Source of the DNA: Leucoraja erinacea
Taxonomy: Eukaryota
Assembly (NCBI RefSeq): GCF_028641065.1
Contig: NC_073384.1
Location: 41,850,001-41,914,000 of the forward strand
Reading direction: 5' to 3'
DNA: 64,000 nt
Within the stretch, counting starts at the first letter, position 1. The number at the start of each line of letters is the position of its first letter. A program made the translations under genes and the position numbers. The notes under the pieces are model-generated. The model ran no database searches. It saw only the letters and a list, made by a program, of their open reading frames with translations, and was not told the origin of the DNA. This document shows, piece by piece, positions 1,251-58,395 of this stretch.

Positions 1251-4200
1251 ATCAGAGTTAACACTTCATGGTACATTCTGATGAATGGCCAGTCACCCAA
1301 AACTTTACCTCCATTTCCCTTTCCAGAGGTTCTGCCTGACCAGCTGCAAATGCCCAGGGTCATCCCTGGGTTTTTTATTTGCAATCACTGCCTATTATTG
1401 CAATGTTCTAACAAAATGCAGCTCTGTAACTGGAGATAGCCCTACTGAAGATGACTTGGCTCAGCATCCAGTTCAGAGCCTGTGAAGGCTGTTCCAAATA
1501 GACATTGGTGGGTAATATTGCCAAAGGCTTGACGATAAGGTTGGTGCCAAGTGCAGTCCACTGCCTGCCAACCATCCCCACATCCCTTCCTTTCATGCCT
1601 GGCTTAATTGCCATTGAGTTGTTCTGAGCCAGCACCCAATATTATGGTTAATCAGTCATTCAGTTATCACGATGTTGTCATTGAGCCTGATCTCCCACTT
1701 GCAGTTGGGAAGAGGAGCCCCAGTTTGCAGTAACTGTGCATGAAACCATGGTATGTTAATCGTGTCCACTGGTACAGGCCTCTGAAAACCTGCTACTGGG
1801 CACTGAATAATACTCGAGCAGCTTGAATTGCCGAGCATTCCTCAGTCAATCTTCTTTCCAGACAAGTCAAATGTCATATCAATGTCAGCAGAGGACCAGA
1901 TGGGCTGCTAGCAATCATTTATTTTAAATGATTAACATGAAGGTTTATGAGAACCCAAAGTGCCAATAGAAGAAAAATAAAGGGAACAGTGAAATGACAA
2001 CTGACAAGTGAAGGATTGAAGCTATTTGCATTGGCCATTTAGATCAGCTACTTCCCTCGTAACTGGGGCATCATTCAGACAGATGTTCTGTGTGCCCAGC
2101 GAATGGAAATGTGTGCGAGCTTATCACATCACCAGGTTTGTTTGAGGTACATACGCCCATAATCACCGGCCACGCCACTGGGAATGAAATGGCAGTGAAA
2201 ATTGGGCAGAGTTCCACCCATTTCATGTTGCAATAAAAGATGACTAATGGAAGCAAGCAAGAACAACGCAGGGAGCAATTGTGGGAAATGTTAGGAGTGA
2301 ATGAGAGAATGTTACATGGTAAGCAATGTGAGAGAGAGAAAGGACACGTTTATGTTTGGGGGGGAAAGTGTGCGAGGAAGCATGCGAGTAAACCAGAGAG
2401 AAACAGAGTGCAATTCTGGATTGAAAATGCTTTTAAGAGATAGAATAAGGAAGCAGTAGAGAGGATGCAGAAGGGAGAAATAGTACAGGAAATTAAAGAG
2501 AGATAAAATGATAGAGATTTGTGAAATTGAGAGCTGCATGAACAGAATAAAGAATATTCCAAGGGAGAGAATGATTAACAGCCAGTGAATGAGGAAGAGA
2601 TCATAAGGTGCAGAAAGAGAAATAGAAAAGATGAACATTAAAACAAATGCAGAGACGCAGGTAAAGAAATTAAAATGACTTGGACTGTCTTCGAGACAAG
2701 TTCTTGATGCACAGGTGTTTGGCTGATGAAAAAAATATTAGAGATGCACGAAGATGACAAGAATTGAGATTAGGTTAAAGGGAATTAAATTATATCTTTG
2801 TACATTCTGAATAAAGTCTTGCTGAAAGAAAAATCACTGTTTTAAGCCTAACCATGTATTGATACGTGAAAGGTGATTTCATTGATACATAAAAAAGAAT
2901 GGAGATTGAAAATGATGTATAAAGGAAAACAGGAAAGTGTGGGGAAAATCTATATTGCATTTCACATTAAATGTTTTCATAAAAATGTTGAGTAAAACAA
3001 CTTAAAATGAAAGGTTATTGCTTATGCCATGAGGTTGTATCGGCAATATATGTTTTTTTGTACGTAGTATGAACATTGCTTATGTTGCGATCTTGGTGTA
3101 AATTGTGGATCTTATCCAAGAGCTTCATTGATCTGGTGCTTTCAAACATGTGTGGCAGCAGTTTCAACATATTATCTCTTCATTACAATTCACCTCTCCT
3201 AACTGCCTTCCTTTCATACACTTTCCCATAGCCCCATTTAAACTCGGAGTGTGTCATAATTGCATTGCCTTCAGCTTGAAAAAAAGTCAGTCATTCATTT
3301 TCTCTGTGATCCCTCTAATTTTCAACAAAGGAGCAGCATATTCGGGAAATACTGCATCATGGATGTCATTTACCTGGTCACTTAACAAATATTGTTGTAG
3401 TGTTGTGGCAACATTTGTATTCCATCCTTAATTAAGTGATATTGATGGTTCTCTCTGAAGGCTAGCACAGTCTCAATGGGCCGAAGGATCATGTTTTGTG
3501 TTGCATGGTTTCACAGTTCTAATTCACCAATAGTCAATGGTCAAAGATAGACACAAAATGCTGGTGTAACTCAGGAGGACAGATAGCATCTCTGGAGAGA
3601 AGGAATAGTGACGAGACCCTTTTCAGACTTTCTATCTTCAGTTTATAACCATATAACATATAACAATTACAGCACGGAAACAGGCCATCTCGGCCCTACA
3701 AGTCCGTGCCGAACAACTTTTTTCCCTTAGTCCCACCTGCCTGCACTCATACCAAAACCCTCCATTCCCTTCTCATCTATATGCCTATCCAATTTAAAGT
3801 TTAAAGCCGCATCTGCAGTTCCTTCCTACACTGGTCAATGGTCACTCAAGAATGCGCTAAATGTACCACGTAAAAGAAGGGTTGGACATTTCATTTTAAG
3901 AGCCTCATTAAATGGAATCAGTTGTCAAAACTGTAATGTGATTGGTGCTAATTTATGTTTTATTTAGGATTGTCAAATTACTGATGCAAAGAGCAGGAAT
4001 AATGCAAAGGACATAGAGACTTTCTAAGTTAAACAAAGAGGGGAAGGTTGCATTTTATTCAAAATCAAAAATTTCAAAGTGCTGGAGCAATTCAGCGGGT
4101 TAGGCAGCATTTCTGGACTCGGACAGGTGACGTTCTGGGTCTGGACTCTTCTTTGGCATTTTATTCAATTTTTGAAACCTGTTTGTATACCAGTGAATTG

Positions 4201-4623
4201 TGCACCTTGTGTTATCGAGTCAAGCTATCCTCCACTTCTGCTTGCTGGGTGAGTTGCACTTTGCTGTGCTGAGGTGAGGATCCTGCTTCGATTCATATTG
4301 AGTTGTGAGTTGGGAAAAGCGATCTGTTTGTTGCAGGAAACTGTGAACAAACAAGGAATATTATGGAAGTGCAGACTCAACATCAGAACGGATTAAACAT
4401 AAATAAAACATCAGAAATAATGTCAGCATTCTAAGCAATGCCGCATCCCAAAGATTTACGACATTGCTTAATGAAGTAACCCTTTAGGATACTATGATGA
4501 GAAAGTGGGACAACATAGAACTAGTGTGAATGGGTGATTGATGGTTGGTATTGCCACTGTATCTGTACACTAAACCATCCCAATGGGTTAATTTCTTCCG
4601 ATGATACAAAATGTATGTGCACC

Positions 4624-5040
4624 TTGCCGGGTCTAGATGGCCCGAGCTCTAGGGAGAGCTGGAGCAGGCTAGGACTCTATTCCTTGGAGCGCAGGAGGAT
4701 GAGGGGTGATCATATGGAGGTGTACAAAATCATGGGAGGGTATTCACACAGTCTCTTGCCCAGAGCCAGGGAATTGAGAGCCAGAGGACATGGGTTTAAG
4801 GCGAGGTAGGGAAACCTTTAATAGAAACCTGAGGGGTAACTTTTTTACATAAAGGGTGGGGGGTGTATGGAATGAGCTGCCAGTGGTAGTTGAGGCAGGT
4901 ACTATTACAATGATTAAGAAACATTTAGACCAAAGGACAGGTTTAGAAGGATGTGAGCCTAATACAGGCATGTGGGACTGCTGTGGATTGGGCAAGTTGG
5001 GCCAAAGGACCCGTTTCATTGCTGTATGACTCTATGACTC
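4624..5040 (+). mobile_element. CR1 LINE 3' fragment
   Basis: Translates to LGLYSLERRRMRGD.MEVYKIM (CR1 ORF2 C-terminus), followed by 3' UTR and (tgactcta)n tail. Confidence 0.85.
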
Positions 5041-5502
5041 CAGATGATTCTCTATGATGCTCAATGCTCATAATGTTTCAATCCCACTGGTAGTTGTAGG
5101 CTTAGTAATGCTGCTGCTTTAGTCTCCTTGGTGCTCTGATTCATACAAAAATGACTATACAGCAAATATCCAGTCTGCATGCCATTGGTAATTGCTGAAT
5201 GTGAACATTTTGAACATGAATTGCTCCGACTGTCCAATACATGGCTCAAAAGTATGTATCCCTTGGTTGTTTTCATGACAGGTTTGTTCCAATATTGAAC
5301 CCAAAGCACATGCATAGTATGTGTTGTACCCAATCTTAATAAGGATATTATTATGAGCTAAAGCCAAGTAGGCAGATCATTATATCAATCTATGGGCAAT
5401 GTTGTTTTGACACCACATTCCTGCCCATCCCCATTCCGATCTTTTAACTTTGCAAAGTGAACATTCAATTTCAGAAGGAACATCCATCAACCATATTTAA
5501 TT

Positions 5503-5875
5503 TAGACTTTAGAGATACAGAATGGAATCAGGCACTTCGGCCCAACAAGTCCATGCCGACCAGCGATCACCCTGTACACTAGCACTATCCTACACACTAT
5601 GGACAATTTACAATTTTTAACCAAAGCCGATTAATCTACAAGTCTGTACGTCTTTGGACTGTGGCAGAAAACCCACGAGGTCATGGGGAAGTATAAACAA
5701 AATGGTGGAGTAACTCAGGGGGACAGGCAGCATCTCTGGAGAGAAGGAATGGGTGACGTTTCGGGTCAAGACCCTTCTTCAGACATCATGGGGAGAACGT
5801 ATATACTGCGTACAGACATTACCCATAGTCAGGATCGAACCTGGGTCTCTGCCGCTGCACCACTGTGCCACACAG
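5503..5875 (-). mobile_element. HE1-type V-SINE interrupted by a Penelope-terminus unit
   Basis: Matches the other SINE copies in the window; foreign insert at ~5698-5785. Confidence 0.85.
5751..5784 (-). ncRNA. Minimal hammerhead ribozyme motif (Penelope-type), catalytic core intact
   Basis: Minus strand gt-CTGAAGA-a-GGGTC-tt-GACCC-GAAA-C-GTC-accc: CUGANGA box, helix II, GAAA box, palindromic ACGT helix III, GUC cleavage triplet; helix I is only 2 bp. Confidence 0.65.
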
Positions 5876-6431
5876 TTTTACTCAATTTAATCAATAGCAA
5901 CTTGCAGGTTAGTGATTGATTCAATTATGCTGCTGTGATTCGACGTTGTTGAGTTCTCTAACATGTTTTTAAAGTTGCTGTGGTAGGAGGGAGACCTGTG
6001 ATGGATGCTTAAATAGTTAGTCTTGAATCTTCAACTGACTCTGTGCGCATTGGTAGGCACACCACTTGGGGTAAAGTACATTGAGGAAATTGAGCATATG
6101 GCATACAGAAGAAAAGGAGATTTGGAACACGGATGATGAGATGGGGAGAAAGCTCCCCCTAGCATGAGTCCAGATCATTCAACGTATCATGGAAGCAATT
6201 GTCCTACCAGGATCCCAGCAAGAAAGTGTCAGTGATGTCTGTGCTTCAGTGAAGACATCTTCATAAATGATAGCTACCTGTACCAGCATCAGAGCAGGGC
6301 ACAGACTGCTCTGCCTGTGGCTCTTAAGATTAGCCTGGCAATAGGCTGTTACCTGTGGGGATATTTCCAGTCTGGAGCTGTAGATATTTGTAACATCTAA
6401 TTTTACCTTATGTGCAAGGAGGTTACTGATG

Positions 6432-6767
6432 TGTGTTGGAAGCAACTGCAGATGCTGGTTTAAACTGAAGATAGACACAAAATGCTGGAGTAACTCAGCG
6501 GGACAGGCAGCAGCTCTGCAGAGAGGAAATGGGTGACGTTTCGGGTCGAAATCTTTCTTCAGACCAAGGGGAAAGGGAAACTAGAGATATAACTGGCGAT
6601 GTAGAGAGACACAGAACTAATGAATGAAAGATATGCAAAAAATCAGCCATGATAAAAGAAACGGGCCATATTTAGCTGTTTGCTAGGTGAACAAGAAGCT
6701 GGTGTGACTTGGGTGGAGAAGGAATGGAGAGAGAGGGAATGCAGGGTTTACTTGAAGTTAGAGATTA
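6432..6767 (-). mobile_element. Penelope-like element 3' end / pLTR fragment
   Basis: ORF-end motif (tctctaacttcaagtaa on minus), 3' UTR, degenerate hammerhead and the shared terminal unit. Confidence 0.75.
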
Positions 6768-6861
6768 CTGATATCCACTATTTTCAAAGTGCTGATAGCG
6801 TCTAGTTTTATTGTCCTTGACCAGAGAGAGCAGCAGAAGTGAGTGTATTGTTTTACCTGGC

Positions 6862-7020
6862 AGGACTCAAAGTGCTGGAGTAACTCAACAGGTCAGGCAG
6901 CATTTCTGGAGGAAGTGGATAGTGACGTTTTGGTTCGGGACCCATCTTCAGTCTCGATCACCTGTCCACGTTCCCTTGCCATGCTGCCTCTCCAGCTGAG
7001 CTACCCCAGCACTCTGTATC
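6862..7020. repeat. Fold-back pair of Penelope-terminus units
   Basis: caaagtgctggagtaactca...tgagctaccccagcactctg inverted arms. Confidence 0.7.
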
Positions 7021-7547
7021 ATCTTCTAATCATACTAACCTCTGCATATTAACCTACAAATCTTGATTGCACAGAGAGCTGCTGGCAATGGCATCTTCTT
7101 GTGTCCACTCGTCTCTGACTTGCATGCCTGCACATTGAAACCTGACGTACCGACACAAAACATCACCTATCCAAGTTCTCCAGACACTCTGCCTGACCCA
7201 CTGAGTTACTCTAGCACTTTGTATCCTTTTGTGTATTGACCAGCATCTGCAGTTCTTTGTCTCTACACTCTGGTGTCAGCAGGCTTGCAGGTTTGACCCT
7301 GTGGAATAGTGCCTTGGCTTCATTCCCTTCCCATTCCCTTCTATGTCACTTTACTTGGCACTCTGGCAGGAGAAAGGATGAATCTATAGTGAGGGGAATG
7401 GGTAGGAGGGAGGTGTATAAGAGAGTGTACAAAGTAAGGCATGAAAGTTGTAAGCAGATGAGATGGCAGAACAAGGATGGGGGGGGAAGGGATGTGCGAA
7501 GGATATAATGTGGGTGGAGCATCATTGTCAATCATTCCTGCCCCACT

Positions 7548-7856
7548 GACTTTAGACTTTAGATATACAGCATGAAACAAGCCCGTCCGCCCACCGAGGC
7601 CATGCCGACCAGCGATCACCCCGTACACGAGCACTATCCTACACATTAGGGACAATTTACAATTTTATCAAAGCCAATTAACCTACAAACCAGCACGTCT
7701 TTCGAGTGTGAGTGGAAGCCAGAACATCCAGAGAAAACACACGCAGTCACGCGGAGAATGTACAAACTCCGTACAGACAGCACCCGTCGTCATGATCGAA
7801 CCCGGGTCTCTGGTGCAGTAAGGCAGCAACTCTACAGCTGTGCCATCATGCTGCCC
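7548..7856 (-). mobile_element. Full-length HE1-type V-SINE
   Basis: tRNA-like head with A box (tggcacagctgtag) and B box (ggttcgatc), V-domain core, CR1-derived tail and (ctaaagt)n end. Confidence 0.9.
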
Positions 7857-8381
7857 CATTGCTGGTGACTTTGCAAGCGCTGGCTTGGGAATGATAACCC
7901 AAACTACGGTGAGTGCATCTTATTCCATGGCAATCAGCTGATGAAGAGGCTCCTGTCCTTCTCCTTGGGATTCTGTATCATCTGCTCCGGCAAAAGTACG
8001 GGGGCAAGTTGGTGAGTGTTGTGCAATGTGCTTGGCTCATGACTATCTGGAATATCTGGAAGTGCGTACAAGCATGGAGAGGTTGGGATGGGGCTTGCAG
8101 CAGTTATAAGTGCTTGAGAATGCAGTGGAGCAAATTAATATGCTGTCTGCACTGAAAGCTCCAAGGACGGATTGACTGTGCACTCTGCTGCTAGTGTATC
8201 CCTGTTCACCTCTGAGCCATAAACATTCAAAGAATGCCCGGTTTAATTTTTGTTCCGTGCTGCAATAAATAGAGTTAGTGATATTGTCTGTCATTGTATG
8301 CACCTTCACATAGTCAACTCCATTAATTTATGTTGCACCACACATTTGTGTCAGTAAGATCTGGGAATCATAGAACACAGT

Positions 8382-8668
8382 GGATGGCACGGTGGTGCAG
8401 TGGTAGAAGCCCATGTTCCATCCTGACTATGGGTGCTTGTCTGCACTGAGTTTTGTATGTTCTTTTGTGACTACATTGGTTTTCTCCAGGTGCTCCGGGT
8501 TCCTCCCACATTCCAAAGATGTGCAGGTTTGTAGGTTATTTGGCTTCTGCAAATTGTTCCTAGTGTGTAGGATAGAACTAGTGTATGGGAGATCGTTGGT
8601 TGGTGCAGACTCGGAGGGCCGATGGGCCTGGTATTGTGCTACATCTCTAAAACTAAAACTAAAAACTA
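8382..8668 (+). mobile_element. HE1-type V-SINE
   Basis: ggcacggtggtgcagtggtag head, gtgctccgggttcctcccacattccaaaga core, (aaact)n tail. Confidence 0.88.
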
Positions 8669-9137
8669 CCATAGAAGAGTACAGCACAGGAAGAGGCCAT
8701 TTAGCCCATTTTGTCTGTGCCAAACATGATGCCAAGATTAACTAATCTCATCAGCCATATATATTTAGATCTCAAGGTGGTCTCTGACTTTCTTAAATTT
8801 GGCTTGGACAATCATACACCTGTGTTTCTGCTATGAAAAGTGTTGACATTTATAAAATCCCTTTCACAAGCACAGTACACCCTAAAATGCCTAACTGGTC
8901 AATAAACAACTTTTGTAGGGAACAATGTTGGGAGGCACAAACCTTATGTGGGTGTGAAACAAAAGGACTATGGCATAGTGATGATCTATCACAGCCTTTA
9001 TCTTGGCCTCAGCTTGTGGATTTACTGCAGGTGAGGATGCTTTTGTGGCAGCATGATAATTTCTGCAGCACTAGTAATTTTGGCTTCAGATGAAAACTGA
9101 ACTGGTGATTAGAATAAATCAGCCTTTTAAATCACAC

Positions 9138-11002
9138 TGTGTAAGAAAGAATTACAGATGCTGGTTTAAGTCGAAGGTAGACACAAAATGCTGGACTAAC
9201 TCAGCGGGTGAGGCAGCATCTCTGGAGAGAAGGAATGGGCGACGTTTCAGGTCGAGACCCTTCTTCAGACTGATGTCAGGGGAGGGGGCAGGACAAAGAT
9301 AGAGTGTAGGCGGGAGGGAAAACTGGGAAGGGGTTGGAGAGAGAAGGCAAGGGCTATCTGAAATTAGAGAAGTTAATGTTCATACCGCTGGGGTGTAAAC
9401 TACCCAAGCGAAATATGAGGTGCTGTTGCTCCAACTTGCACTGGGCCTCACTCTGACAATGGAGGAGGCACAGGACAGAAAGGTCAGATTGAGAATGGGA
9501 GGGGGAATTGAAGTATAGAGCCACCGGGAGATCAGGTTGGTTAAGACGGACTGAGCGGAGGTGTTCAGTGAAACTCGCCGAGCCTGCGCTTGGTCTCGCC
9601 GATGTAGAGAAGTTGACACCTGGAACAGCGGATACAGTAGATGAGGGTGGAGGAGGTGCAAGTGAATCTCTGCCTCACCTGGAAAGAGTGTTTGGGTCCT
9701 TGGACGGAGTCGAGGGGGAGGTAAAGGGACAGATGTTGCATCTGTTGCGGTTGCAGGGGAAAGTACCTGGGGAGGGAGTGGTTTAGGTGGGAAGGTACGA
9801 GTTGGCCAGGGAGTTTTGGAGCGAACGGTATCTGCGGAAAGCAGAAAGGGAAGGAGATGGGAAGATGTGGCCAGTAGTGGGATCACGTTGGAGTTGGCGA
9901 AAATGTTGGAGGATTATATACAACGGCTGATGGGATGGGATGGAAAGTGAGGACAAAGGGACTCTGTCCTTGTTACGAATGGGAGGAGGAGGAGTAAGAG
10001 CAGAGCTGCGGGAAATCGAGGAGACCCTAGTGAGAGCCTTATCTATAATGGAAAAGGGGAACTCCCGTTTCCTAAAGAATGAGGACATCTCCGATGCTCG
10101 GATATGGAACACCTCATCCTGGGTGCAGATGCGGCGTAGACGGAAGAATTGGGAGTTGGGGATAGAGTCTTTACAGGAAGCAGGGTGGGAAGAAGTGTAG
10201 TCAAGATAGCTTAGGGAGTCAGTAGGTTTGTAGTAGATGTCAGTCAACAGTCTGTTTCTTGTGATGGAGACGGTGAGATCTGGAAACGGTAGGGAGATGT
10301 CCAAGATGGTCCAAGTGAATTTGCGTGCTAGATGGAAATTAGTGGTGAAGTCGATGAAGTCAGTGAATTCTGCTTGGGTGCAGGAGGTAGCATTAATGAA
10401 GCGGAGGTAGAGTCTGGGGATAGGGCCAGTGTATGCCTAAAACAGGGATTGTTCGACGTACCCAACAAAGAGGCAGGCATAGCTAGGGCCCATGTGAGAG
10501 CCTATAGCTACGCCTTGGATTTGGAGGAAGTGGGAGGAGTCAAAGGAGAAGTTGTTGTGGGTAAGGACCAGCTCTGCTAGGTGGAGGAGAGTATTAGTAT
10601 CAAACTGGCTGGTTCTGCAGTCGAGGAAGAAATGGAGGGCTTTAAAACCCTCCTGGTGGGGGATGGAGGTGTAGAGTGACTGGACATCCATGGTAAAGAT
10701 GAGGGAGTGGGGGCCTGAAAAATGGAAGTCATTGAGGAGACGAAGAGCATGTGAGGTGTCTTGGACATGGGTAGGGAGGGATTGGACCGGGGGGAATAGG
10801 ATGGAGTCGAGGTATGTGGAAATTAATTTGGTGGGACATGAACAAGCAGTACCAATGGGTCTGCCAGGACAGTTCTGTTTGTGAATTTTGGGGAGAAGAT
10901 AGAATCGGGCTGTTCGGAGCTGGTGAACGATAAGGTTGGAGGCAGAGGGCAGAGAGCCGTTTGTGATGAAATCAGTAATGGTGCTTGAGATTAAGGCCTG
11001 GT
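9138..11002 (-). mobile_element. 5'-truncated Penelope-like retroelement (Neptune-type): RT, Cys-rich linker, GIY-YIG endonuclease, 3' pLTR; disrupted by stops and frameshifts
   Basis: RT motifs FYLLPKIHK..PGRPI, TMDVQSLYTSIP, QIQGVAIGSHMGPSYA; linker TFPCNRNRCNICPF; endonuclease LIYCIRCSRCQLLYIGETKRRL; ORF stop at 9354-9356; hammerhead motif at 9237-9272. Confidence 0.93.
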
Positions 11003-11758
11003 CCACTCCTTTAAATCACACTCCTGCCTTTTGCAACATTGTTTATTGCAGCAGTTCTATTTTGTAAGGACCCCTTTTAAAATTCTAAAACGCAGAATGG
11101 CAAACCGCAAATAGGAAAGAATGCCCAGCAATCAGCTGAGATGTGAAATAAGGAAACATTTGCTGGAATTGCTTGCAAAGTGAAAGGACGTGTTTCGATT
11201 TAGGTCTCCTTTCTTCATTATGAATTGTTTCTGTTTAGATGTTGGGAGCATATGTAAATACATTTGTGTGGAAATATATTCAATTACAGAACACACTGTT
11301 TATTGTCGCTGCTGGACAGGCGGTTAGGATTTAACTCACTAAATTATAGAAGCTGGTTTTGAACTTCTATTTTGTTTCATTTAGAGATACAGCGTGGAAA
11401 CAGGCCCTTCGGTCCATTGAGTCCATGTTGACCATCAATCACCCATACACTAGCTTTATCCGACACACTAGGGACAATTTATTGTAACCATTTAAGCTAC
11501 AGACCTGCATGTAATTGGAATGTGGGTGGAAACTGGAGCACCTGGAGAAAATTCAAGTGGTCACAGGGACAAACTCTGTACAGACAGCACCCGTAGTCGG
11601 GATCAAACCCAGGTTATTCGGTTAGTAGGGGCCTTTCGGCCCCTATTACATATATCCCTCCCTCTGGCTTTATGTTTCACTCATCATTTTTCCTAATCTA
11701 ACACCCTTTTGTCTCCTTTTTATCTCAAGCTTTTGTCACTCTGCACATCTGCCAATAA

Positions 11759-12045
11759 GGACAGCACAGTGGCGCAGCAGTAGAGTTGCTGCCTTACAGC
11801 ACCATAGACACGGGCTTGATCCTGACTGCAGGCGCTGTCTTTTTACGTTCTCCCTGTGACCGCGGAGGTTTTTTCCGGGCTTTCTGGTTTCCTTCCACAT
11901 TCCAAAGATGCGCAGGTTTGTAGGTTAATTGGCTTCTGTAAATTGCCCCGAGTGTGTAGGATGGAACTAGTGTATGGGTGATCGTTAGTTGGCGCAGACT
12001 TGGTGGGCCAAAGGGCTTGTTTCCACGCTGTATCTCTAAAAAAAA
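11759..12045 (+). mobile_element. HE1-type V-SINE
   Basis: tggcgcagcagtagagttgctgccttacagc head, V core, CR1 tail; an oppositely oriented copy lies at ~11380-11612. Confidence 0.88.
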
Positions 12046-13137
12046 TTAACCTCCCCCGTTTCACGTATCCACTGTCTGAAGAAGGGTCTCGACCCAAAAC
12101 GTCACCAATTCCAGAGAGAGAGAGAGAGAGCCGCTCCCAGCTCTCTTTTCCAGCTTTCTTTCCACTGCTTCAATCAGACAGCATTACAAGAGATCATTGA
12201 TACTGTAGCTAACTGGTCGGGCAGCATCTCTGGAGAAAATGGATGGGTGATGTTTTGCATTGGGAACCTTCTTTTACTGACTATAGTTGGGAGGGGGGGT
12301 GGACTGGATGCAAGAAAAGACCAGGACAAAGGACGGAGCAACTGTGTATTTCATTTTGTTTCATGTCATAGCAGCAGAATTAGACCATTCAGTCCATCGT
12401 CCATTCCGCCATTCAATCATGTCTGATCTTCTCCCCATAACTCGTACTAATCAAGAATCTGTCAATCTCTGCCTTAAAAATATCCAATTATTCTTATAAT
12501 TCATGAACTTTCATATTCTAATTAAACTCCAGCATTTTATAAAGTCTGAGGAAGGGTCGTGACCAGAAACATCACCTGTATGTGTTCTCCGGAGATGCTG
12601 CCTGACCCGCTGAGTTACTCCAGGACTTTTTTTCTTCTGTAAACCAGCATCTGCAGTTCCTTGTGCCTAGTAGTATGATCAGGCTGGGTGGCACCTACTC
12701 TAACAAGCTCTGCTCCATCCGTGGGTGATACACACTATGGAGGTGCTCACTGCCCTGTTCAATGAATTGCTGGACATTAAATGGGCCACTGGGAAAACGT
12801 TCAAGTGGAATTATAACGTGCCAAGGATGGAGTTGATCTGGAGATGTTCTTCTGACCATAACCCAGAATTTACTCTATCATCTTCAAACTCCACCATTAT
12901 CTTCGGTAATTGCCACTGACATAATCCATTTTTCTGTAGAGAAATTTTGAAAAATACGAATTACATAGCTACTTAATCATGTAGACAAGAAAACCAGTGC
13001 ACTATGCCATTGGCCTATTATCTATTAGTAACATTTTTGGTCATTATGATTTGTGGAAATCTAACTGCTTGCAAGAGAATATTCCCAGGAGGACTGACAA
13101 CCGACATGTGTAAATGTGGAACTCACTAAAGGATTTG

Positions 13138-13155
13138 GTACCACTAGATGGCATA
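13138..13155 (+). promoter_or_regulatory. Candidate CTCF site
   Basis: CCACTAGATGGCA matches the CCASYAGRKGGCR core; motif match only. Confidence 0.3.
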
Positions 13156-13358
13156 AACAACTCCTTTTCTACCCAATGTGCTTACGTTTTGGCCTATTAA
13201 TTCATGCATCTCTGTTTAGGTTCCAGGAAACCTCTCCTTTGCTTCCTTCCGTCGAGGTACATAACACAAATGAAGTTTACAAAGCCATTTAAGAAACACA
13301 CATTTAAAGCTAAATGTTTTGATCTGCTTGGAAGCAAACAGTTTTTCGATAACAAATT

Positions 13359-13820
13359 CTCATCTATGGCGGCGGAGGGGAATCCCCGTTCCCTGAAGAA
13401 CGAGGACATTTCCGATGCCCTGGTGTGGAACGTCTCATCCTGGGAGCAGATACGGCGTAGGCGGAGGAATTGGGAGTAGGGGGTGGAGTCTTTACAGGGG
13501 GCAGGGTGGGAAGACGTGTAGTCCAGATAGCCATGGGAGTCGGTGGGTTTATAGTGGATGGCGGTCAGAAGTCTATCACCTGCGATGGCGATAGTGAGGT
13601 CAAGGAATGGTAGGGAAGTGTCGGAAATGGTCCAGGTATATTTGAGTGCCAGATGGAAGTTAATGGTGAAGCGGATGAAGTCAGTCAGTTGTGTGTGGGT
13701 GCAGGAGGTAGCACCAATGCAATCATCGATGTAGCGGAGGTAGAGGTCGGTGATGGGGCCCTTGTACGTCTCGAACAAGGATTGTTCAACGTACCCTACA
13801 AAGAGGCCAGCGTAGCTGGG
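13359..13820 (-). mobile_element. Penelope-like RT fragment (young subfamily)
   Basis: Uninterrupted frame SYAGLFVGYVEQ...YLRYIDDCIG...YKPTDSHGYLDYTSSHP...FPSAAID; very similar to 36965-37424. Confidence 0.92.
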
Positions 13821-14835
13821 ACTGTTGACATGGATGTTATTTGGAGCTGTGACTATAGAGAGTCTGTACATTATGTAGAGATGGTTTTAGAGATAAAGCA
13901 TGGTAACAGGCCCTGTTGCCCATCGAGTCTGTGCCAACCATCAATCTCCCGTTCACACCAGTTCCATGTTACCTCAGTTAACATCTACTCTTTACACAGT
14001 GGAGGGCAAATCACAGAGGCCAACAAACCTACAAACCCGCATGTCTTGGGATATGTGAGGAAACCGGAGCACCCGGAGGAAACCCATGTGGTGACAGGGA
14101 GAACATGCAAACTCCACACAGAGGGCACCTGAAGTCAGGATCGAATGCATGCCCTTGGTGCTGTGAGACAGCAGATCTCCCCAGCTGAGCCACAGCACCA
14201 CCCTCATCTAATGCTTTTACCATCTCCGCATTCTATGCTGAAGTAGATCACCAGTCTCCTCTTGTCCAAATCATAGCACACGTACCTTCCACAAAATAAG
14301 TGCGAGCATTGTCCCAAAATCCTGGCATCTAACTTGTCCTTCTAAAGACAATTTGTAGCACACATCGCTACATTCTTCTGTGTCAGCATAGATCAAAGAT
14401 TAAACCAAGCATTTCTTGGCCTATTTAGTTTAATACTCCATCATGCATTAACTCCCACCCTTGCCCCTGTCATCCCAAATTAGGCCATCAAGTAACAGTT
14501 CTAAAAGACTGATTTTTATGTTGAATATTTAATTTGTCGGACTGACTGGTGCCTCTGTATTTAACATGCTTATATTACTGATGTGCAGAGCATTTGGATT
14601 GTTAATGTTTAATTACACATCTCATGGACACAGAGAGGATTTATTATAGCTCAGCAATTACTTCATTGATACCCCTGGTATCTGGCATTGTGTGGAAATC
14701 ATAGGAAAGCAGGCACTAGGTTTTAGTTCAATCATTGCTGAAATTAATAAAGAAGATGTTCTTACAATGCTGGCCACATATCTACAGAGTAAAATAGCCA
14801 TTTGGGTTTGTCACTTGACCTTGCGTTTTGCACAG

Positions 14836-15041
14836 CCAAGTATGAATGTTGTATTCTGGCTGAGACGGTTTGAAAACAACATGCATGGAATCAGCTATCC
14901 CTGTGTTCATCACCGCAAGGGTCAGATGCGCACTAAACCTGGCATTAGAATTGGAACGCAGTTCCGGACTATTATTTTAATACTCTTCTGCAAAAGGTAC
15001 ATCACCTTGAAGTGCGGTTTCTACTCTGAACATTATTCACA
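14836..15041 (+). other. Candidate exon (206 nt), host transcript unidentified
   Basis: Branch-like cttgac, pyrimidine tract and cacag acceptor; CA|gtaagt donor; unique sequence with one open frame; peptide not recognised. Confidence 0.3.
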
Positions 15042-15429
15042 GTAAGTGCAAGTGTTAGCATGCTGTGGCAAAATACACACATCGCCAGTGCCAGATACCC
15101 AGGTTCGATTCTGACTGCAGGTGCTGTCTGTACGGAGTTTGTGCGTTCTCCCCGTGACCTGCGTGGGTTTTCTCTGCATGCTCTGGTTTCCTCCCACACT
15201 CCAAATACGTTCAAGTTTGTAGGTTACTTGGTTTCTGTTAATTGTGAATTGTCCCTGGTGTGTAGGATAGTGCTAGTGTACGGGGTGATCACGGGTCGGT
15301 GTGGACCGAAGGACCTGTTTCTGTGCTGCATCTCAAAATATCATATTTGATGTGTACTGCAGAGTGGAGCATTCATAGATCAAGGAGATATATAAAATAC
15401 TCTCAGTTATCATGTGTTATTCCTAAGCT

Positions 15430-15630
15430 TTTCAAAGCACCCCAATGCACTGTACTTTTGAAGTGTAGTTGTTATAATAGATGAAAAATGCTTCGATAAT
15501 CAGATTATTTACATTGGTTATGGTGACTGAGAAATAAAATATGGTTAGAATACAAAGATTAGACTGCTTTGGAAAATATCCAGGGAGACTTTTATGATCA
15601 TTTGAGAGAACAGACAGGAACCTGGTCCAT
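15430..15630 (-). mobile_element. Old, diverged SINE, probably Deu-domain (SacSINE1/AmnSINE-related)
   Basis: tacttttgaagtgtagt and downstream sequence resemble, from memory, the reverse complement of the Deu-SINE 3' half; similar piece at 56680-56730. Confidence 0.45.
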
Positions 15631-29030: not shown

Positions 29031-29062
29031 AAGTGGTTTGGTTGCCAGTTGAGGCACCCAGA

Positions 29063-29970: not shown

Positions 29971-30024
29971 GTAAAGAATCACTTCTCTGTAACATAATCC
30001 AGAGACAGAGATCAGTACTGTTCC

Positions 30025-34238: not shown

Positions 34239-34262
34239 GCAAAAGCCCAGAGTACACCCTTA

Positions 34263-35900: not shown

Positions 35901-35916
35901 GGTACACAAAAATGCT

Positions 35917-42400: not shown

Positions 42401-44024
42401 CTACTGTTCGCAGTTGTATTTCTGATGATAATAAAGCAACAATGGGCCTTTGTGCCTATTTATGTACAATTTGCTGACCAAGTCTCATTAAATAGGAACG
42501 AGCTTCTCACCACCCAAGCCCACTTGATGCATGACCCTTCCAGTTAGGGGAGGGAAAACTGGGGAGACATTTATCTTTGATGACTAACATTGCAAGTTTG
42601 TGTGAGTATTGCCTGTTTATTGAAGTTATTGGAACCAAATGTGCAGAAGGTGTATACAACTGATACCTGTTACTGTAGCGTCAGCTCAGGATGCAAGGAC
42701 ACGTTTCACTCCCCAGCCTGGTTAACCCATCACAGCAACAGAAGAAAAAAACCCCCAGAAACACCCAGGCAAGAAGCATGAGTGGAGAGATCAACAGAGT
42801 CCTTACAGAGCTGGAGACCTGGGCTCGGTCCCAACTACTACTGCTGTTTGTAAGGAGCTTGTACATTCTCCCTGTGACCATGAGTGTTTTCTTCAGTTGC
42901 TCCGGCTTCCTCCCACACTCCAATGATGTACAGGTTTGTAGGTTAATTGGCTTCTGTACATTTTTTAATTATCCCTAGTATGTAGGATAGTGCTAGTATA
43001 CGGGGTGATCGCTGGTCAGCGTGGACTTGGTTGGCCGAAGGGCCTGTTTCTGCGCTGTATCTCGAAAGTCTAGTAAACAGCATCTCATCTAATATCCTGG
43101 CACATTGCAGCCTGAAAAACTCAAAATCGATTTGAACAATCTTCACACACGTCTCTTTACCTCGATAGAAATGGCTGTTTCCAATTTTTTTTATTTTCCG
43201 CTTTTTATCTAGCGCTGTTTTTTAAAACAATTCTTGATCATTTTGATCTGCACTATATGTGTTCTCTCCGCTCTCCCCTCTCAATCGTTTAAAACATTCT
43301 TGATTCCTCACATTTCCATTTCCCTGACCTGGAACCTTGACAATTTGCTGCCCCACTGGTGCTGACAAAGCTGCTGAATTACATTTTTGTAGGATTTCTT
43401 TCATATGCAACTTTTAGTTCTTGTTTAACTCCATGCTGGATCTTTTTTTTATTTTAGTTTAGTTTATTGTCATGTGTATCAGCAATGCTGGCTCTGTGTG
43501 CAAGCCAATATCTTTGACTGATTATAGACACAATGTGCTGGAGTAACTCAATAGGTCAGGCAGCATCTCTGTAGGAAAAGGATAAATGAAATTTCAGGTC
43601 AGGATCCTTCTTCAGACAGAAGAAATGTCTTAAGAAGGGTCCCAACGCAAAACATCTCCTATCTTTTTTTCTCCAGTTGGCGGCACTTAAGCGCCAGATA
43701 CCCGAGTTCGATCCCAAGTAAGGATGCTGTCTGTACGGAATTAGTATATTCTCCCCGTGACCGCATGGGTATTCTCTGAGATCTTTGGTTTCCTCCCACA
43801 CTCCAAAGACGTACAGGTTTGTAGGTTAATAGGCTTGGCATTATTGTAAAATGACCCCTAGTGCATGTAGGATAGTGTTAATATGCGGGGATAGCTGGTC
43901 GGTGTGGACTCGGTGGGCCAAAGGGCCTGTTTCTACGCTGTATCTCTAATAAAAACAAACAGTTGCTTCTTGAGTTACTCCAGAACTTTGTGTCTATCTT
44001 TGGTCTAATCCAGCATCTATATTT

Positions 44025-47546: not shown

Positions 47547-48719
47547 GAAACATAGGAAAATATGTGCAGGAGTACTCTTTGCTTCCTGTCTGCCCATCGA
47601 GCCAGCACCGCCATTCAATATGATCATGGTTGATCATCTAAAATCAGTACCCTGTTCCTGCTTTTCCCCCCATATTCCTTGATTTATTTAGCCCTAATAG
47701 CTAAATCTAACTCTCTTGAAAATATCAAATTGGCCTCCACTGCCTTCTGTGGCAGGGAATTCCACAGATTCACTACTCTCTTATTTTTTCCTCATCTCAG
47801 TCCTAAATGGCCTACCCCTTATTCTTAAACTGTGACCCCTGGTTCTGGACTCCCCCAACATCGGGAATTTTTTTCCCGCATCTAGCCTGTCCAATCCTTT
47901 AAGAATTTTATATGGTTCTATAAGAACCCCTCTCATCCTTCTAAATTCCAGTGAATACAAGCCCAGTCGACCCATTCTTTCATCATATGTCAGTCCCGCC
48001 ATCCCGGGAATTAACCTGGTGAACCTATGCTGCACTCCCTCAATAGCAATAATGCCTTTCCTCATATTAGGAGACCAAAATTGCACACAATACTCCAGGT
48101 GCGGTCTCACCAGGGCCCTGTACAACTGCAGTAGGACCTCCTTGCTCCTAAACTAAAATCCTCTCGCAATGAAGGCCAATATGCCATTAGCTTTCTTCAC
48201 TGCCTGCTGTACCTGCATGCTTGCTTTCAGTGACTGATGTACAAGCACACCCAGTTCTCGTTGCACCTCCCCTTTTCCTAATCTGACACTATTAGATAAT
48301 AATCTGCCTTCCTGTTCTTGCCATGCATGCGCCCACTCTCGCAACCTATTCAAGTTACCCTGCAGCCTCATAGCATCTTCCTCGCAACTCACACTGCCAT
48401 CCAGCTTTGTGTCATCTGCAAACTTGGAGATGTTACGTTTAATTCCCTCGTCTAAATAGTTAATATATATTGTAAATAACTGGGTTCCCTGCACCGAGCC
48501 TTGCGGCACTTCATTAGTCACTGCCTGCCATTCTGAAAAGGACCCATTAATTCCTATTCTTTGTTTCCTGTCTGCCAACCAGTTCTCTATCCATGTCAAT
48601 ACCCTACCCCCATACCATGTGCTCTAATTTTGCCCACTAATCTCTTGTGTGGGCCCTTTTCAAAAGCTTTTTGGAAGTCCAGATACACCACATCCATTGG
48701 CTCTCCCTTATCCATTCTA
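47547..48719 (-). mobile_element. CR1 LINE, 5'-truncated, RT domain to 3' UTR, disrupted
   Basis: YLDFQKAF, WIENWLADRKQR, VPQGSV, KFADDTKL, YRALVRPHLEYCVQFWSP. Confidence 0.95.
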
Positions 48720-51700
48720 ATTCCATGCTGACTGACCGATCCTGTCACTGTTTTCCAAAGGTGCTGCTATTTCATTTGTATATAATATGCAGAATCATGA
48801 GAGGCATAATAGCACAAATGGTCACAGTTGTTTTCCCAAGATAGATCTGCCCAGGTAAATCCCTGTGACCTGCATGGGTTATCTCCGGGATCTCCAGCTT
48901 CCACCCACATTCCGAAGATGTTCAGGTTTGTAGGTTAATTGGCTTTTGTAAAATTTAAATTGTCTCTAGTGTGTAACATAGTGCTAGTGTATGGGGGTCA
49001 CAAGTTGGACCAAATATGAAGACTTCATTATTTTCTTCAAGCCATTTGAATAACTGAGTTTTGGTGGCAGATCAGATCGAGAGAGATAATTTTAAGATAT
49101 TCATCTTATATAAGTCATCACAATTTCTTCACTTTGTACTCAACATCCAACGCTCCGTCATCAACTCCAAAGTAAAGATCATCAGATGCAGTGAAAATTA
49201 GGCAGCGTATTCAATGCTGTTCAGTTAATTAGTGTGCAAAATTAAAATGATCCACACCCATCCAAAGATTAACTATAAAAATGATCACCAACGGTTTTCA
49301 TCCTTTCGTTATCATGCACTTTGGGGATGAAACAAAATAGCATTTAGCCCAAGCAATAAAGATGAGAATCATTCATGGCCTTTTGAAGCTTATTTTTAAC
49401 ATAAACATCATTTTCGCAAGGTCCATGCGATTAGATTTCAGTCCCAGTTGCCAAAAATAAACCCTTCGATGTGCAAATCCCTTCACACATGCATCATTTT
49501 AAATGTACAATTTACAAGTGGCCAATTATCAAGACAGGCTGCCATAATCACACATCTCGATTTTGAACATGAGCTCAGACGCTTCACACACATTAGTAAC
49601 TAACTTTGCATTCTCCCCAGAACATCTGCTGTTAATATTCTTATATTTTTCTTACATAAACCACCTCAATTTACACATAATTCTTTGGCTTATTTGCTCT
49701 AAACTGAAAATTTAAAAAAAAGGTCAGATCATGCTGTACAAGGCTGTGTGAAAATCAGATAATAAGGAATGGAAATTTTCCTCTGCTGAGCATGTGTTAA
49801 GGTGTGGGAAAGCTCAAATAGAGAGTCCAGTGGGATAGTTAATTGCAGAATAAGACCATGTGCAAATAAGCCGTTCACTCTTATTTACCAGAGTGTTTAA
49901 TTATAGGGTGAGCATATTCAATGATAATTTATTGTCACATGTACCTAGGTACAGTGAAATCTGTTTAGTTTAGTGCAGTTTAATTTAGAGATGCAGCATG
50001 GCATCATGCCCTTCAGCTCACCCAGTCCACGTGGACCAGCAATCACCATAAACTAGCACATCTACACACAAAGGATGGTTTACAATTTACGGAAGCCAAT
50101 TAATCTACAAATCTGCACGTCTTTGGAGTGTGGGAGGACACTGAACCACCCGGAGAAAATCCATGTGGTCACAGGGAGAACATACACACTCCGTACAACT
50201 CCAAGTCAAAATCCAACCCGAGTCTCTGGTCCACTCAGGGTTCCAGGCTATTTTTTGCACGAGTTTTGGGGTAATTAATTGAGCCGTATCATGCAATAAC
50301 GGCTAAAATAATACCATGTGTTCTCATAGGTTGAAGGCCCAACTCAAAGTTTTAACTGAAACACTCAAGCATTGACTCACTGGTGGGAAAGTCTGAATAT
50401 AGGAGTTATAGAGTCATACAATGTGGAAACGGGCCCTTCGGCCCAACTTGCCCATACCGCCAACATGTCCAATCTACACTCGTCCCACCTGCTTGCATTT
50501 GGCCTATATCTCTCTAAACCCATGTATCTGTCTAAATGTTTCTTAAAGTTTGCGATAGTACCTGCCTCAACTTCTTCCTCCAGCAGCTCGTTCCATATAT
50601 CTCCTGGTCTTAGACTCTGTGTTACCCCTCAGGTTCATATTACATCTTTCTACCCCCACCTTGAAACTGTCCTCTCCAGAGGTTAAGAGGTATTTTCCAG
50701 ATATCGTACCTTATCCAAATGTATCGACTCCAGGTGTGGAATTGATGATTTATTCATATCAAATTATTTTGTAAAAACAAGCTTCCAGATTCAGGTGACA
50801 TGTGTTTTGTTTAGTTTAAAGATACAGTGTGAAAAAAAGGCCCTTTGGCCCATCTGCGCTGACCAGCGATCCCCATACACTAGCATTATCCTGCACATTA
50901 GGGACAATCTTACAATTTTTACCAAAACCAATTAACCACAAAACCAGGGAAAACCCACGTGGTCACAGGGAGAGTGTACAAACTCCATACAGACAGCACC
51001 CGTAGTCATGATGGAACCTGGGTCTCTGTCGCTGTGAGGCAGCAACAATACCACTGTGCTATCGTGCTTCTATGACCAATCATGGCAGCTTCTGAAACAA
51101 TGCATATTTGTCCCTACAGTTGCAAGCATTTTTAAACATTTTTAGCCTATAGGGTATATATTTTTTAAATAGGCTTTCTTTTATTTTGTACTTGTCAAAG
51201 TGAGGGATGCCTGCACCATGAGTGGAGCACTTCCTAAAGAACAATCTGTCAGCTTCAATCACTCAAATCCGAGACATGGCATGGGTTTGATGTAGTGTAA
51301 CATTCCTACTTTTCCTTTGAATGCTCCTTAATCTAAACCACTGCAGAGCACATCAGTTCAGTTAGTTTAAGAAGGAACTGCAGATGCTGGAAAATCGAAG
51401 GTAGACAAAAATGTTGGAGAGACTCAGCAGGTGAGGCAGCTTTATAAGCATAAATGCTGCCTTACCCACTGAGTTTCTCCAGCATTTTTGTCTACCTTCA
51501 GTTGAATTAGTATTGAGGATATTTTTGCACATTGGATCAGAAGCAGACTTGGAGCATGGAGGATGTGAGGAGGGGTCAGCATTGGCAACCAGCAGAGAAT
51601 TTAATCTGTACTTAGTGGAACTCGGCATTGACTGTGACTGTCCACATAGATGTGGAGAGAATGTGTCCACTTGTGGGAGAGCCTAGGACCAATCCCTCAG

Positions 51701-53110: not shown

Positions 53111-54225
53111 ATTGATTTAATTCAATTATACTTTATTGTGACATTTACCTAGGTACAATGATATTGTTTATTTTTGCATATAATACCCAAAGTGCGCAAA
53201 GTGTCTTTGAGATAACTCATATTTCAACGTGCTTTAATTGGTAAATGTGGCAACAAACTTACCTTGAAACCATGAAACCATGAAACATATCTGGCAGCGA
53301 CAAAGTTAGAAAAGTAACCATTAGAGTCTCGATGGTCCCTCTGTTCTCGGAAGCCTCCCAGGCCAAGTCCCTCTTTGTTCTCAGTTGTCCCCCACCAAAC
53401 CAGGTCCCTCCTTGTTCTCAGCGCCCCCCCCCCCCTCGACTTCCCAAAATACAACACCGCACATTTTCTCGGATTAAACTCCATCTGCCATTTCTCCGTT
53501 CATCTCTGTAACTGATCTAAATCATGCCATGTCCTTTAACAGCTTTCATCACTGTCCATACTGTGTAGGAATAGCAGGCATAGGTTGGAATCACCACTGC
53601 GTAGTCAGTTTTAGTTTAGTTTAGAGATACAGCATGAAAACAGGGCCCATCGAGTCCATGCTGACCAGCGATCACACGTACACTAGTTCTATCCTACACA
53701 CTAGGGACAATTTACACAAGCCAATTACCTACCAGTGATCACCTCTTACACTAACATTATCCTACACACGAGGGACAATTAAAAAAATTAGCAAAGCCAA
53801 TTAACCTACGAACCTGCACGTCATTGGAATGTTGAAGGAATCTGAAGCATCTGGAGAAAACCCAGTGGTCACAGGGAGAAAGTACAGACTTCCTACAGAC
53901 AGCACCCGCGTGGTCAGGATCGACCCGGGTCTCTGGCGTTGTAAGGCAGCAACTCTACCGCTGCGCCACTGTGCTGCCCACAGTTCCATTGCATTTGGTT
54001 TCATTGATGTCGCTGAAAAAGACAATGTTGAGGTGAGCAGCCAAAGGCCTGGTATCTCAGAAGAAGATTATTTTTTCACCCAATGCAACACAAAGTGTCG
54101 GAGTAACTCAACGGGTCAGGCAGCATCTTTGGAGGGAATGGGCAGGCGACGTTTCTGGTTGGGAAGTAGATACAAAATGCTGGAGCAACGCAGAGGGACA
54201 GGCAGCATCTCTGGAGAGAAGGAAT

Positions 54226-54261
54226 GGGTGACGTTTCAGGTCGAGACCCTTCTTCAGACCC
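54226..54261 (-). ncRNA. Minimal type I hammerhead ribozyme motif with a 4-bp helix I
   Basis: Minus strand GGGT-CTGAAGA-AGGGTCTCGACCT-GAAA-C-GTC-ACCC. Confidence 0.6.
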
Positions 54262-56641: not shown

Positions 56642-57129
56642 CACTCATGGCACATCTGAAAACACCTATCAGGATATTTCAAAATGCTTCATAATCAATG
56701 AAGTGTAGTCACTGTTGTAAAACAGGAAACGATGTTACATGCACATGGTATCACAATTAGAATTGACTCAACCTCCAAATTAAAACAAAATGGTAGAGAT
56801 ACAACAAAGGTCTAATATGTGTGAGTAGTTCCACTGGTGGTTATTCTCAAGATGTTAAATATTGTAATTTTAATGGTTTATTGATTTTGTGCTGTTGTTT
56901 TAATGTATGTAAGTTACAAAGATAGTGCAAATTTCTCTCCTTTTTCATTGTGATCGTGGCCAGAGAATGAATGGTTTAAAATAGCATTGCTTTGAATCCA
57001 TTCATTGCAGCATTGGCAGGGAGGTATGGTTAGCATATCGTGTAATTTTATGGTGTATTGTCCAACTTATGGACAAAAGTTTAGGTTTAGGTTTATTATT
57101 GTCATGTGTACCAAGGTGCATGCTATCAA

Positions 57130-57546
57130 CTTTTGCTTGGGCAGCATACAACCCACTGGTATAAAAATGTATTTCGCTAACTTCAAGTAATGTGTGCATC
57201 CCCTCTCTCTCGCGATACCCACCCAAGATGTTGTACTAGCTTCAAAGCCGGCTTGTTGAGTTATTGTCTGTAACTCGTTTTCACTAAAGGCCACAGCAAA
57301 TAATGGCTTGTTCCCTTTATCATCGTTACTTTTTTGCCTACCTTTCATTCATTTGTTCTATATCTCTCTATATCACCGTCTACATCTCTTGTTTCCCTTT
57401 CACGTGACTATCAGTCTGAAGATAGATCTCAACCCAAAACGTCACCTATTCCTTTTCTACAGAGATGCTGTCTGACCCGTTGAGTTACTCCAACTTTTTG
57501 TGTTTATCTTCAGTTTAACCCAGCATTAGCAGTACCTTCCTCCACA
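57130..57546 (+). mobile_element. Penelope-like 3' end with degenerate hammerhead
   Basis: FCLGSIQPTGIKMYFANFK* endonuclease tail, 3' UTR homologous to 6432-6767, cagtctgaaga...aaaacgtcacc. Confidence 0.8.
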
Positions 57547-58021
57547 AATCAGATAATGTTAGACTTTAGACTTTACAGCTGACTTTGAACGTTGAATAAT
57601 AAAACCAAAGATGACGGCTCTCCTGTAAGGGTTGCCAAAATAGGCCTTAAAATCATAGTGAATGCCTGGTGGTGGGTAGATGGAACAAGCTACCAGAGGA
57701 GGTAGTTGAGGCAGGTACTTTAACAAAATTTAAAAGACAGGTACATGGATAGGGAAGGTTTAAAGGGATGCGGGCCAAACATGGGCAAATGGGACTAGTG
57801 TAGATGGGGCAGCATGGGGAAGTTGGGCCGAAGGGCCTGTTTCAATGCTGTATGACTCTATGACTCCTGCATAAGTAACAATTGTCTTAAGATGGACAGA
57901 CACGTCTAAATAAACTTTTTGGAATTGATATAATGTTAAAGTGCTGGGCATTTCTGTTTATGCCAAAGAATGCAAATGTTTTACACCGGTCCTTATAGTT
58001 TCTCCCACGACTCCATTTAGG

Positions 58022-58395
58022 CTACCCAAAAGTCCTTTCAGGTGAGGCAGAGGTTCACTTGCACCTCCTCCAACCTCATTCACTGTATCCATCGTTCAAG
58101 TAATCCCAACATTCCCTTTCTCCCCCAATCATGTCATCCTACTAGTTCCACTGTTTGTATCCTTGTATCTCATTGTGATCACCTCTTACCCAGCCTACAA
58201 TTATGCCATTGTGTGCTCCACCCATCGTTGGTCATCTGTTTCTGGCCTTGCATTGTTCTGGCCTTTTCTTACATCCAATTCCCTCGCCTCTACTTTCAGT
58301 TTGAAGAAGAGTCGTGATCTGAAACATCACCCATCCATTTTCTCCAGTGTTGGTACCTGATCCACTGATTTATTCCAGCACTTTGTGTCTATCTT
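58022..58395 (+). mobile_element. Internally deleted Penelope fragment (start of GIY-YIG joined to 3' UTR and terminus)
   Basis: QVRQRFTCTSSNLIHCI then jump to tcaagtaa and a terminal unit with a decayed hammerhead. Confidence 0.72.

Follow-up and report, generated by a model that had tools for sequence, protein, structure and literature searches.

The 64,000-nucleotide stretch of the Leucoraja erinacea genome considered here (assembly GCF_028641065.1, contig NC_073384.1, positions 41,850,001 to 41,914,000), referred to below as the window, contains 35 copies of a short unit, including one that terminates a longer Penelope-like element (PLE; Table 1). The units are short, mostly decayed end-pieces of such an element and carry its usual small ribozyme motif, a hammerhead. 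A preliminary description of the window had placed a ~100–140-bp unit at 23 positions and estimated 25–30 copies; all 23 proved to be unit matches in searches with BLAST, using the window's own element, and with a profile made from 51 copies, the profile giving the count of 35. The profile also found 469 matches in a random sample of the same genome (120 stretches of 10 kb, 1.2 Mb in all, chosen at round coordinates of 26 large contigs), and none in the reversed-sequence control of that sample. The density, one unit per 2.6 kb, agrees with the one per 2–3 kb estimated earlier and extrapolates to ~850,000 copies genome-wide, provided that the sample is representative. As had also been noted, most copies lack any reverse transcriptase (RT) sequence, with the stop of the open reading frame (ORF) being reached by 40 of the 469 copies and 600 nt upstream by 10. 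Plus and minus positions in the unit count from C3, with which the hammerhead core CTGAAGA begins; cleavage would be expected after +27.

The Parent Element

At 20 loci with long copies, translations gave an RT, a C-x4-C-x2-C linker, and a GIY-YIG domain in one ORF, with an IYIGET motif in the long copies; Pfam matches to RVT_1 (E = 2e-6) and GIY-YIG (E = 0.005) were both just short of the curated cut-offs. A CX2-5CxxC linker between the RT and the endonuclease (EN) marks Neptune or Nematis (PMC8557442), and Nematis is absent from the four PLE clades found in 35 animal genomes (bioRxiv 2026.07.22.740005). Judged from this linker, which Neptune and Nematis share, the parent would be a Neptune-type PLE with RT and GIY-YIG (EN+).

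In long copies, the ORF stop lies ~115 nt before the core and is followed by a C/T-rich, subfamily-specific untranslated region (UTR) and then by the unit, the 3′ end of which falls at one of two positions ~35 nt apart, ~+93 or ~+128, the extra stretch being the PLE "tail." At the 5′ ends of near-complete elements, the unit runs past +130 into a leader, with the ORF ATG near +165. Because the same sequence forms the 3′ end and the 5′ leader of the element, the unit is a pseudo-long terminal repeat (pLTR), which bears out the Penelope origin first suggested for it. Partial tandems, in which the unit runs on into leader and ORF, are also present, and the 3′ end of another copy precedes 10 of 30 ORF-linked leaders. 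Overall, the features of EN+ PLEs found here comprise a single ORF with RT and C-terminal GIY-YIG, a partial-tandem pLTR, an inverted 5′-truncated copy, and a one-sided tail of 30–40 bp. In the window, the unit does terminate a Penelope element, as had been described for 9138–11002; the element occupies 9139–11007 on the minus strand, is 5′-truncated, and is flanked by a 15-bp target-site duplication (TSD).

A Fixed 5′ Boundary

The idea that a pile-up of 5′ ends at −3 is an artefact of subfamily-specific UTRs was partly true of the first BLAST, and flanks were therefore classified and ends re-called against 131 references. With these references, 170 of the 282 copies at risk stop within −8 to +5 (0.043 per nt, mode −3), compared with 0.004–0.014 per nt in the bins covering +60 to +6 and −9 to −150; in these calls, local alignments erode ends and very short copies are missed. 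In the cleavage-site bin, +24 to +32, 25 of 388 copies stop, that is, 0.007 per nt, the neighboring bins giving 0.0095 and 0.012. The preliminary description had held that many copies stop right at the hammerhead and had proposed plotting copy ends against the GUC site. The boundaries are indeed unlike ordinary random 5′ truncations, but the stop lies at the 5′ edge of the motif (−3), ~30 nt upstream of GUC, with copies spanning the cleavage site and no pile-up there.

The independent test of flanks covered the 254 of 469 matches with an anchored core, of which 89 were inverted, 81 UTR-attached, 74 solo, 7 tandem, and 3 ambiguous. T−1, G−2, and A−3 are kept at 0.77, 0.76, and 0.69 in the solos versus 0.79, 0.83, and 0.74 in the UTR-attached copies, whereas C−4 and T−5 fall to 0.36 and 0.32 in the solos versus 0.70 and 0.75. 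The edge of the solos is the A of TCAGTCT, at −3. The initiator consensus is YYANWYY, and TCAGTCT fits it with that A as +1; the fixed base at −3 is likely where the RNA of the element starts. In the random sample, a slight excess of 5′ ends was also seen at −17 to −29, where the C-run of the UTR begins or ends, and may be alignment noise or a weaker second stop.

A DNA transposon inserted at −2 was considered as the cause of the pile-up and rejected: it removes three of eight apparent leader starts, but its end occurs once in the 1.2 Mb, which cannot account for 170 stops. The three starts, which abut the transposon end, were set aside; both ends and the 8-bp TSD were verified at L187 only. 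The transposon at L187:1785-2649 (G000:C10) is young, non-coding, and ~860 bp long, with terminal inverted repeats and the 8-bp TSD, and its ends also occur in L025, L179, L203, and L250. Several insertions lie at the −2 site of the Penelope leader or close to it (of 29 non-query copies, 1 exactly there), and 30 copies show a target bias of GT-n4-AC. We take it to be hAT-like.

Solo Units and Head-to-Head Pairs as Insertions

Solos and head-to-head pairs are single insertions flanked by TSDs. Duplications of at least 8 bp were found at 20 of the 74 solos (null mean 1.6, maximum 5), and collinear flank matches elsewhere were found for 11 of the 74, with L031, L039, L101, and L055 showing duplications of 9–15 bp relative to empty paralogous sites; several solos sit inside other repeats. 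Empty sites sought in contigs of related organisms were not found, a result without weight, as these contigs break at repeats. The preliminary description did not mention head-to-head pairing, although many copies are pairs: 83 close pairs were counted, against a null of 4.3. Among the 63 pairs with both 3′ blocks, 25 have a TSD (null 0.5), and the tail is on exactly one arm in 49 (30.7 expected, p = 2e-6). In the window, exact or near TSDs were seen in 2 of the 16 stubs (copies ending at the 5′ boundary) or pairs tested, the other 14 being without one.

The Hammerhead Motif and Its Decay

The majority sequence of the family fits a minimal PLE hammerhead, with the catalytic boxes, the extra base 9/10.1, the G10.1-C11.1 pair, and a palindromic helix III. 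That copies extending far enough carry the motif holds as a family trait, but few copies keep it undamaged: 34 of the 469 sampled copies retain core, palindrome, and helix II, 25 of them together with two helix I pairs, and the catalytic core is lost in 93% of copies. In the hammerhead search that had been proposed, Rfam at its gathering score gave no match to the unit, and a minimal-hammerhead descriptor gave 48 matches in the random sample, all inside units, with none in the control. In the window, 2 of the 35 copies pass the descriptor, and the ACGT palindrome is also kept only in that with its core at 5782 on the minus strand. The two CpG sites of the core are among its most eroded positions (0.61–0.70 versus 0.87–0.96).

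The motif had been drawn correctly as a minimal palindromic hammerhead, except that helix II is better described as 4 bp with a tetraloop, the folding model disallowing a 5-bp stem with a 2-nt loop; pair 4 of this helix varies among subfamilies (U-A in 134, U-G in 31). Helix I is weak, as stated earlier, being 2 bp long: pairs 1–2 are present at 0.86–0.90 and pair 3 at 0.12, short of the 4–5 bp of the minimal type. Its predicted pairing probability is ~0 in both folded sequences, and in a young leader helix II is lost as well. The features of a canonical type I hammerhead, namely a 6-bp helix I and loop contacts, were not seen in the unit. Extrapolation gives ~60,000 intact cores genome-wide; with a helix I of 2 bp, they are unlikely to cut host RNA unaided. 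Dimeric variants of PLE hammerheads have reportedly been described by Lunse et al. in 2017. One young subfamily (L011-L030) has, at +24 to +28 of the unit, GUU in place of the GUC cleavage triplet, U occurring at position 17 in 36 of 185 in-register copies, together with a UUCG loop on helix II.

RNA Data

In each of four RNA runs from two organisms, 8,000–24,000 reads match a young leader, of which 80–95% continue into unrelated sequence. Unique DNA between copies (window 3300–8700) was barely covered in two runs, of which 5–6% was read, and none of the indexed runs that contain the window stretch is registered as RNA. No pile-up of starts or ends on the young leader, at GUC or elsewhere, was listed in the four runs, which are poly(A) or oligo-dT libraries that small circles would escape. 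In single-cell runs, the unit at L185:1406-1533 was covered ~5:1 in one direction. This bias is probably due to internal oligo-dT priming on the purine-rich antisense UTR, because the loose ends carry T-runs.

Origin of the Short Copies

The units are dead pLTR insertions of 95–135 nt, probably made by an RT that starts internally and runs off at the 5′ end of uncleaved RNA. In this mechanism, TCAGTCT would be the RNA polymerase II initiator of an internal promoter, with the RNA starting at A(−3); an internal promoter with an initiator and a start site inside the pLTR has been reported for D. virilis Penelope (PMC2377424). The element protein would nick both DNA strands and prime at two internal sites (+93 and +128), by analogy with the Anolis Poseidon element in vitro, the protein of which cuts and extends the two DNA strands, begins reverse transcription at a pair of internal sites corresponding to the tail, and works mainly on uncleaved RNA; the Poseidon hammerhead depends on this protein (PMC11167929). 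The start sites would be present twice, in the leader and in the 3′ pLTR. Priming at the leader sites would leave a template of 95–135 nt and yield run-off stubs ending at −3, priming at the downstream pLTR would give ordinary 5′-truncated copies, and priming on both strands would give head-to-head pairs with a tail on one arm, the hammerhead merely riding along. We lean, with more reserve, toward a fuller version, in which the stubs are integrated "strong-stop-like" cDNAs, ~300,000 in the genome: a Neptune PLE would prime in the leader of its capped, uncleaved mRNA and run off at an initiator that precedes the hammerhead by three bases, producing SINE-like (short interspersed element-like), promoter-bearing inserts without a non-autonomous master.

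Several observations weigh against run-off at an RNA start. Gaps in the set of subfamily references could have swollen the −3 bin, base −4 seems to be included in about one third of the solos, and the TSDs end at −6/−7 in 8 of 20 cases. A cap-derived G at −4 is not in excess, occurring in 6 of the 36 solos with AGT (C in 19). Of the 30 ORF-linked leaders, 5 start at −11 to +2, with 12 being truncated at +9 to +99 and 10 running upstream. The tail is equally frequent in stubs (30 of 73) and longer copies (23 of 59; p = 0.86), and leader priming and short-RNA templates are therefore indistinguishable by this measure. The RNA runs, within the limit given above, show no pile-up of starts or ends on the leader, and the in vitro precedent is a Poseidon rather than a Neptune element.

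Identical ends are predicted if solo stubs or 3′ pLTRs were transcribed from their own promoter at −3 and the PLE protein copied these short RNAs in trans, as in a SINE-like relay. The D. virilis 3′ pLTR contains all that is needed for transcription in the carcass (PMC2377424), pLTRs are enough for mobilization in trans in A. vaga (PMC3846280), and leader or ORF-start sequence of the subfamilies sampled is seldom matched, with 6 matches in 1.2 Mb versus 170 stubs (only matches to library positions 1–99 were counted, as the leader library included an unrelated repeat). Such a relay is nevertheless unlikely: the nearest neighbors of stubs are not enriched in stubs (0.46 versus 0.64 ± 0.09 expected, n = 157, from an 88-nt alignment of low resolution), this test finding no separate solo-only lineage of the kind that defines a SINE-like family; stubs and longer copies occur together in each of the six rough subfamilies, in ratios of ~1.1–2 to 1; and the Anolis protein depends on sequence beyond the start sites, on their downstream side, that may be missing in solo stubs (PMC11167929). 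A boundary created during copying from the 3′ end of a long RNA, by RT stalling at the C/U-rich UTR or by microhomology joining at the palindrome TCAG-T-CTGA, seems a shade more doubtful still. The palindrome accounts for ~8 of the 102 listed pairs, joined at −5/−4 on both arms, microhomologies of 1–3 nt are common at solo junctions, and the lack of a cap G and some excess of ends at −9 to −20 (0.014 per nt) also suit this account. However, the sharp drop between −3 and −4 is seen in TSD-flanked solos without a partner arm, the one 57-nt upstream UTR tested folds weakly (−5.6 kcal/mol), and the helices of the hammerhead, being located 3′ of the stop, would be unwound already.

The preliminary description favored amplification as a small non-autonomous RNA, that is, a retrozyme in which the hammerhead frees a small RNA that circularizes and spreads by itself. 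This fits a minimal hammerhead with a conserved core and U-A/U-G variation in helix II among subfamilies, as well as the relation of retrozymes to PLE pLTRs (bioRxiv 2026.07.22.740005), but is very improbable given the lack of a GUC pile-up in copies or RNA, the 2-bp helix I with its predicted pairing near zero, the loss of most cores, and the lack of a solo lineage. Furthermore, no tandem arrays of the unit were found in the 1.2-Mb sample, none of the nine direct tandems among the 469 matches has two intact cores, and head-to-head pairs place their two motifs on opposite strands, so that no single transcript of a pair holds a dimer. On the run-off reading, the hammerhead plays no part in defining the stubs, whose templates would be uncleaved. 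A splice acceptor at the boundary, suggested by the pyrimidine tract and CAG/T there and by an intron of D. virilis with its end at helix I (PMC4209133), has a negligible chance of being correct and was rejected: splicing would remove the AG, which solos keep (A−3 and G−2) as often as attached copies do, and the sequence upstream of solos is unrelated rather than shared.

Comparison With Known Systems

The family belongs to a known kind, the hammerhead-bearing PLE pLTRs with truncated copies throughout the genome, in print since 2014. Cervera and De la Peña (2014; PMC4209133) described minimal hammerheads in PLE pLTRs, mostly as single motifs of truncated PLEs with some pairs on opposite strands; the in vitro activity of minimal PLE hammerheads was low, and helix I of the D. 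virilis hammerhead is likewise 2 bp. The unit shares with these metazoan hammerheads CUGA-N-GA, the extra base 9/10.1, G10.1-C11.1, the palindromic 15.2-16.2, and the position in the pLTR, and differs in having a helix II of only 4 bp. The density is far higher here (~48 descriptor matches in 1.2 Mb, as against 4,000–9,000 per genome in coelacanth and Xenopus), and a fixed start of truncated copies is not given in the available part of that paper.

With the layout of Neptune-type EN+ PLEs (PMC8557442, PMC3846280), the family shares the C-terminal GIY-YIG, the cysteine linker, partial tandems, TSDs, the inverted 5′-truncated copy, the 30–40-bp tail at one end, and palindromes at inverted junctions; here, however, most insertions have shrunk to ~100–250 bp, and 36% of copies end in one 14-nt interval. 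The Anolis carolinensis Poseidon element (PMC11167929) is alike in having two RT start sites about one tail apart downstream of the leader hammerhead, in the cutting of both strands, in the copying of uncleaved RNA, and in showing no RNA ends at the cleavage site. Poseidon is another clade, in which the ORF begins inside the hammerhead rather than ~165 nt after it, and the part of the paper available describes for it no run-off stubs with a fixed 5′ point. Non-LTR retrozymes (PMC7229834; bioRxiv 2026.07.22.740005) are also short, non-coding, PLE-related, and equipped with a type I hammerhead, but form tandem arrays of 150–450 bp with canonical hammerheads and circular RNAs, whereas the present unit is dispersed, minimal, and uncut at the ribozyme. 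In the available literature (including PMC8969392), outside subscription journals, Repbase, and bioRxiv supplements, no description of a fixed start at an initiator-like base was found. For the question of how PLEs transpose, the junction record provides testable positions, an RNA start at −3 and RT starts at +93 and +128, in a clade without an in vitro system and for templates shown to be uncleaved by the hammerhead.

Other Features of the Window

Table 1. Unit copies and related Penelope-like sequences in the window
Position	Strand	Feature	Remarks
3527–3629	−	Decayed unit from −3	Core partly deleted
4056–4153	−	Decayed unit
5689–5784	−	Solo short unit (−2 to +93)	9-bp TSD 5681–5689/5786–5794; sole copy in the window to keep core, helix II, and ACGT palindrome intact (core 5782–5755)
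6433–6564	−	Unit with tail and short upstream UTR piece	Helix II broken
6864–7048	.	Head-to-head pair, decayed units	6954–6864 (−), 6960–7048 (+)
7151–7258	+	Unit truncated within core
9139–11007	−	5′-truncated PLE: RT, linker, GIY-YIG remnants, pyrimidine-rich 3′ UTR, unit with tail	TSD 9124–9138/11008–11022, one mismatch
9139–9274	−	Unit (pLTR) of the preceding element	Core 9268–9241, C11.1 to T
12073–12112	+	Unit start (−3 to +36)	G12 lost; then GA repeat
12211–12273	−	Decayed unit fragment
12542–12657	+	Unit with tail	From −3/−4 after unrelated DNA
13376–13820	−	Internal RT fragment, same family	Without unit
18922–19004	−	Unit without hammerhead part
20546–20638	−	Solo short unit (−1 to +91)	Core decayed
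20879–20965	+	Short unit from ~+5
27844–27887	−	Unit start (−2 to +41)	Abuts another repeat
28728–29033	.	Cluster of two minus units and one plus unit	Head-to-head joint at 28952
31312–31437	+	Unit with tail from −2	Core present, palindrome lost (ACAT)
32167–32248	−	Decayed unit
33130–33345	.	Head-to-head pair	Tail only on minus arm; 11-bp TSD candidate, one mismatch
35339–35487	.	Head-to-head pair	Both arms from −4/−5
35894–37459	+	RT-coding fragment (521 aa open), younger subfamily	3′ end missing
40678–40953	.	Head-to-head pair	Tail on both arms
43505–43676	.	Head-to-head pair
43970–44019	+	3′ fragment of unit
51365–51507	.	Head-to-head pair	Very short arms without hammerhead
54071–54259	−	Two units	Direct partial tandem
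57405–57541	+	Unit with tail and upstream UTR piece
58296–58408	+	Decayed unit	Pyrimidine-rich upstream

Both arms of the pair at 40678–40953 continue for another ~20 nt in similar sequence, which may be the 5′ leader of an older subfamily. Other repeats are also present in the window. ORF pieces at 25192–27793, which abut the unit at 27844, presumably derive from a DIRS-type retrotransposon, which they resemble. RT fragments of long interspersed elements lie at 47781–48623 and 29993–30409 and are taken to be CR1/L2-like and Tx1/L1-like, respectively. Next to the Penelope element, at 11390–12040, are tRNA-derived SINE-like repeats, which we assume to be HE1-like.

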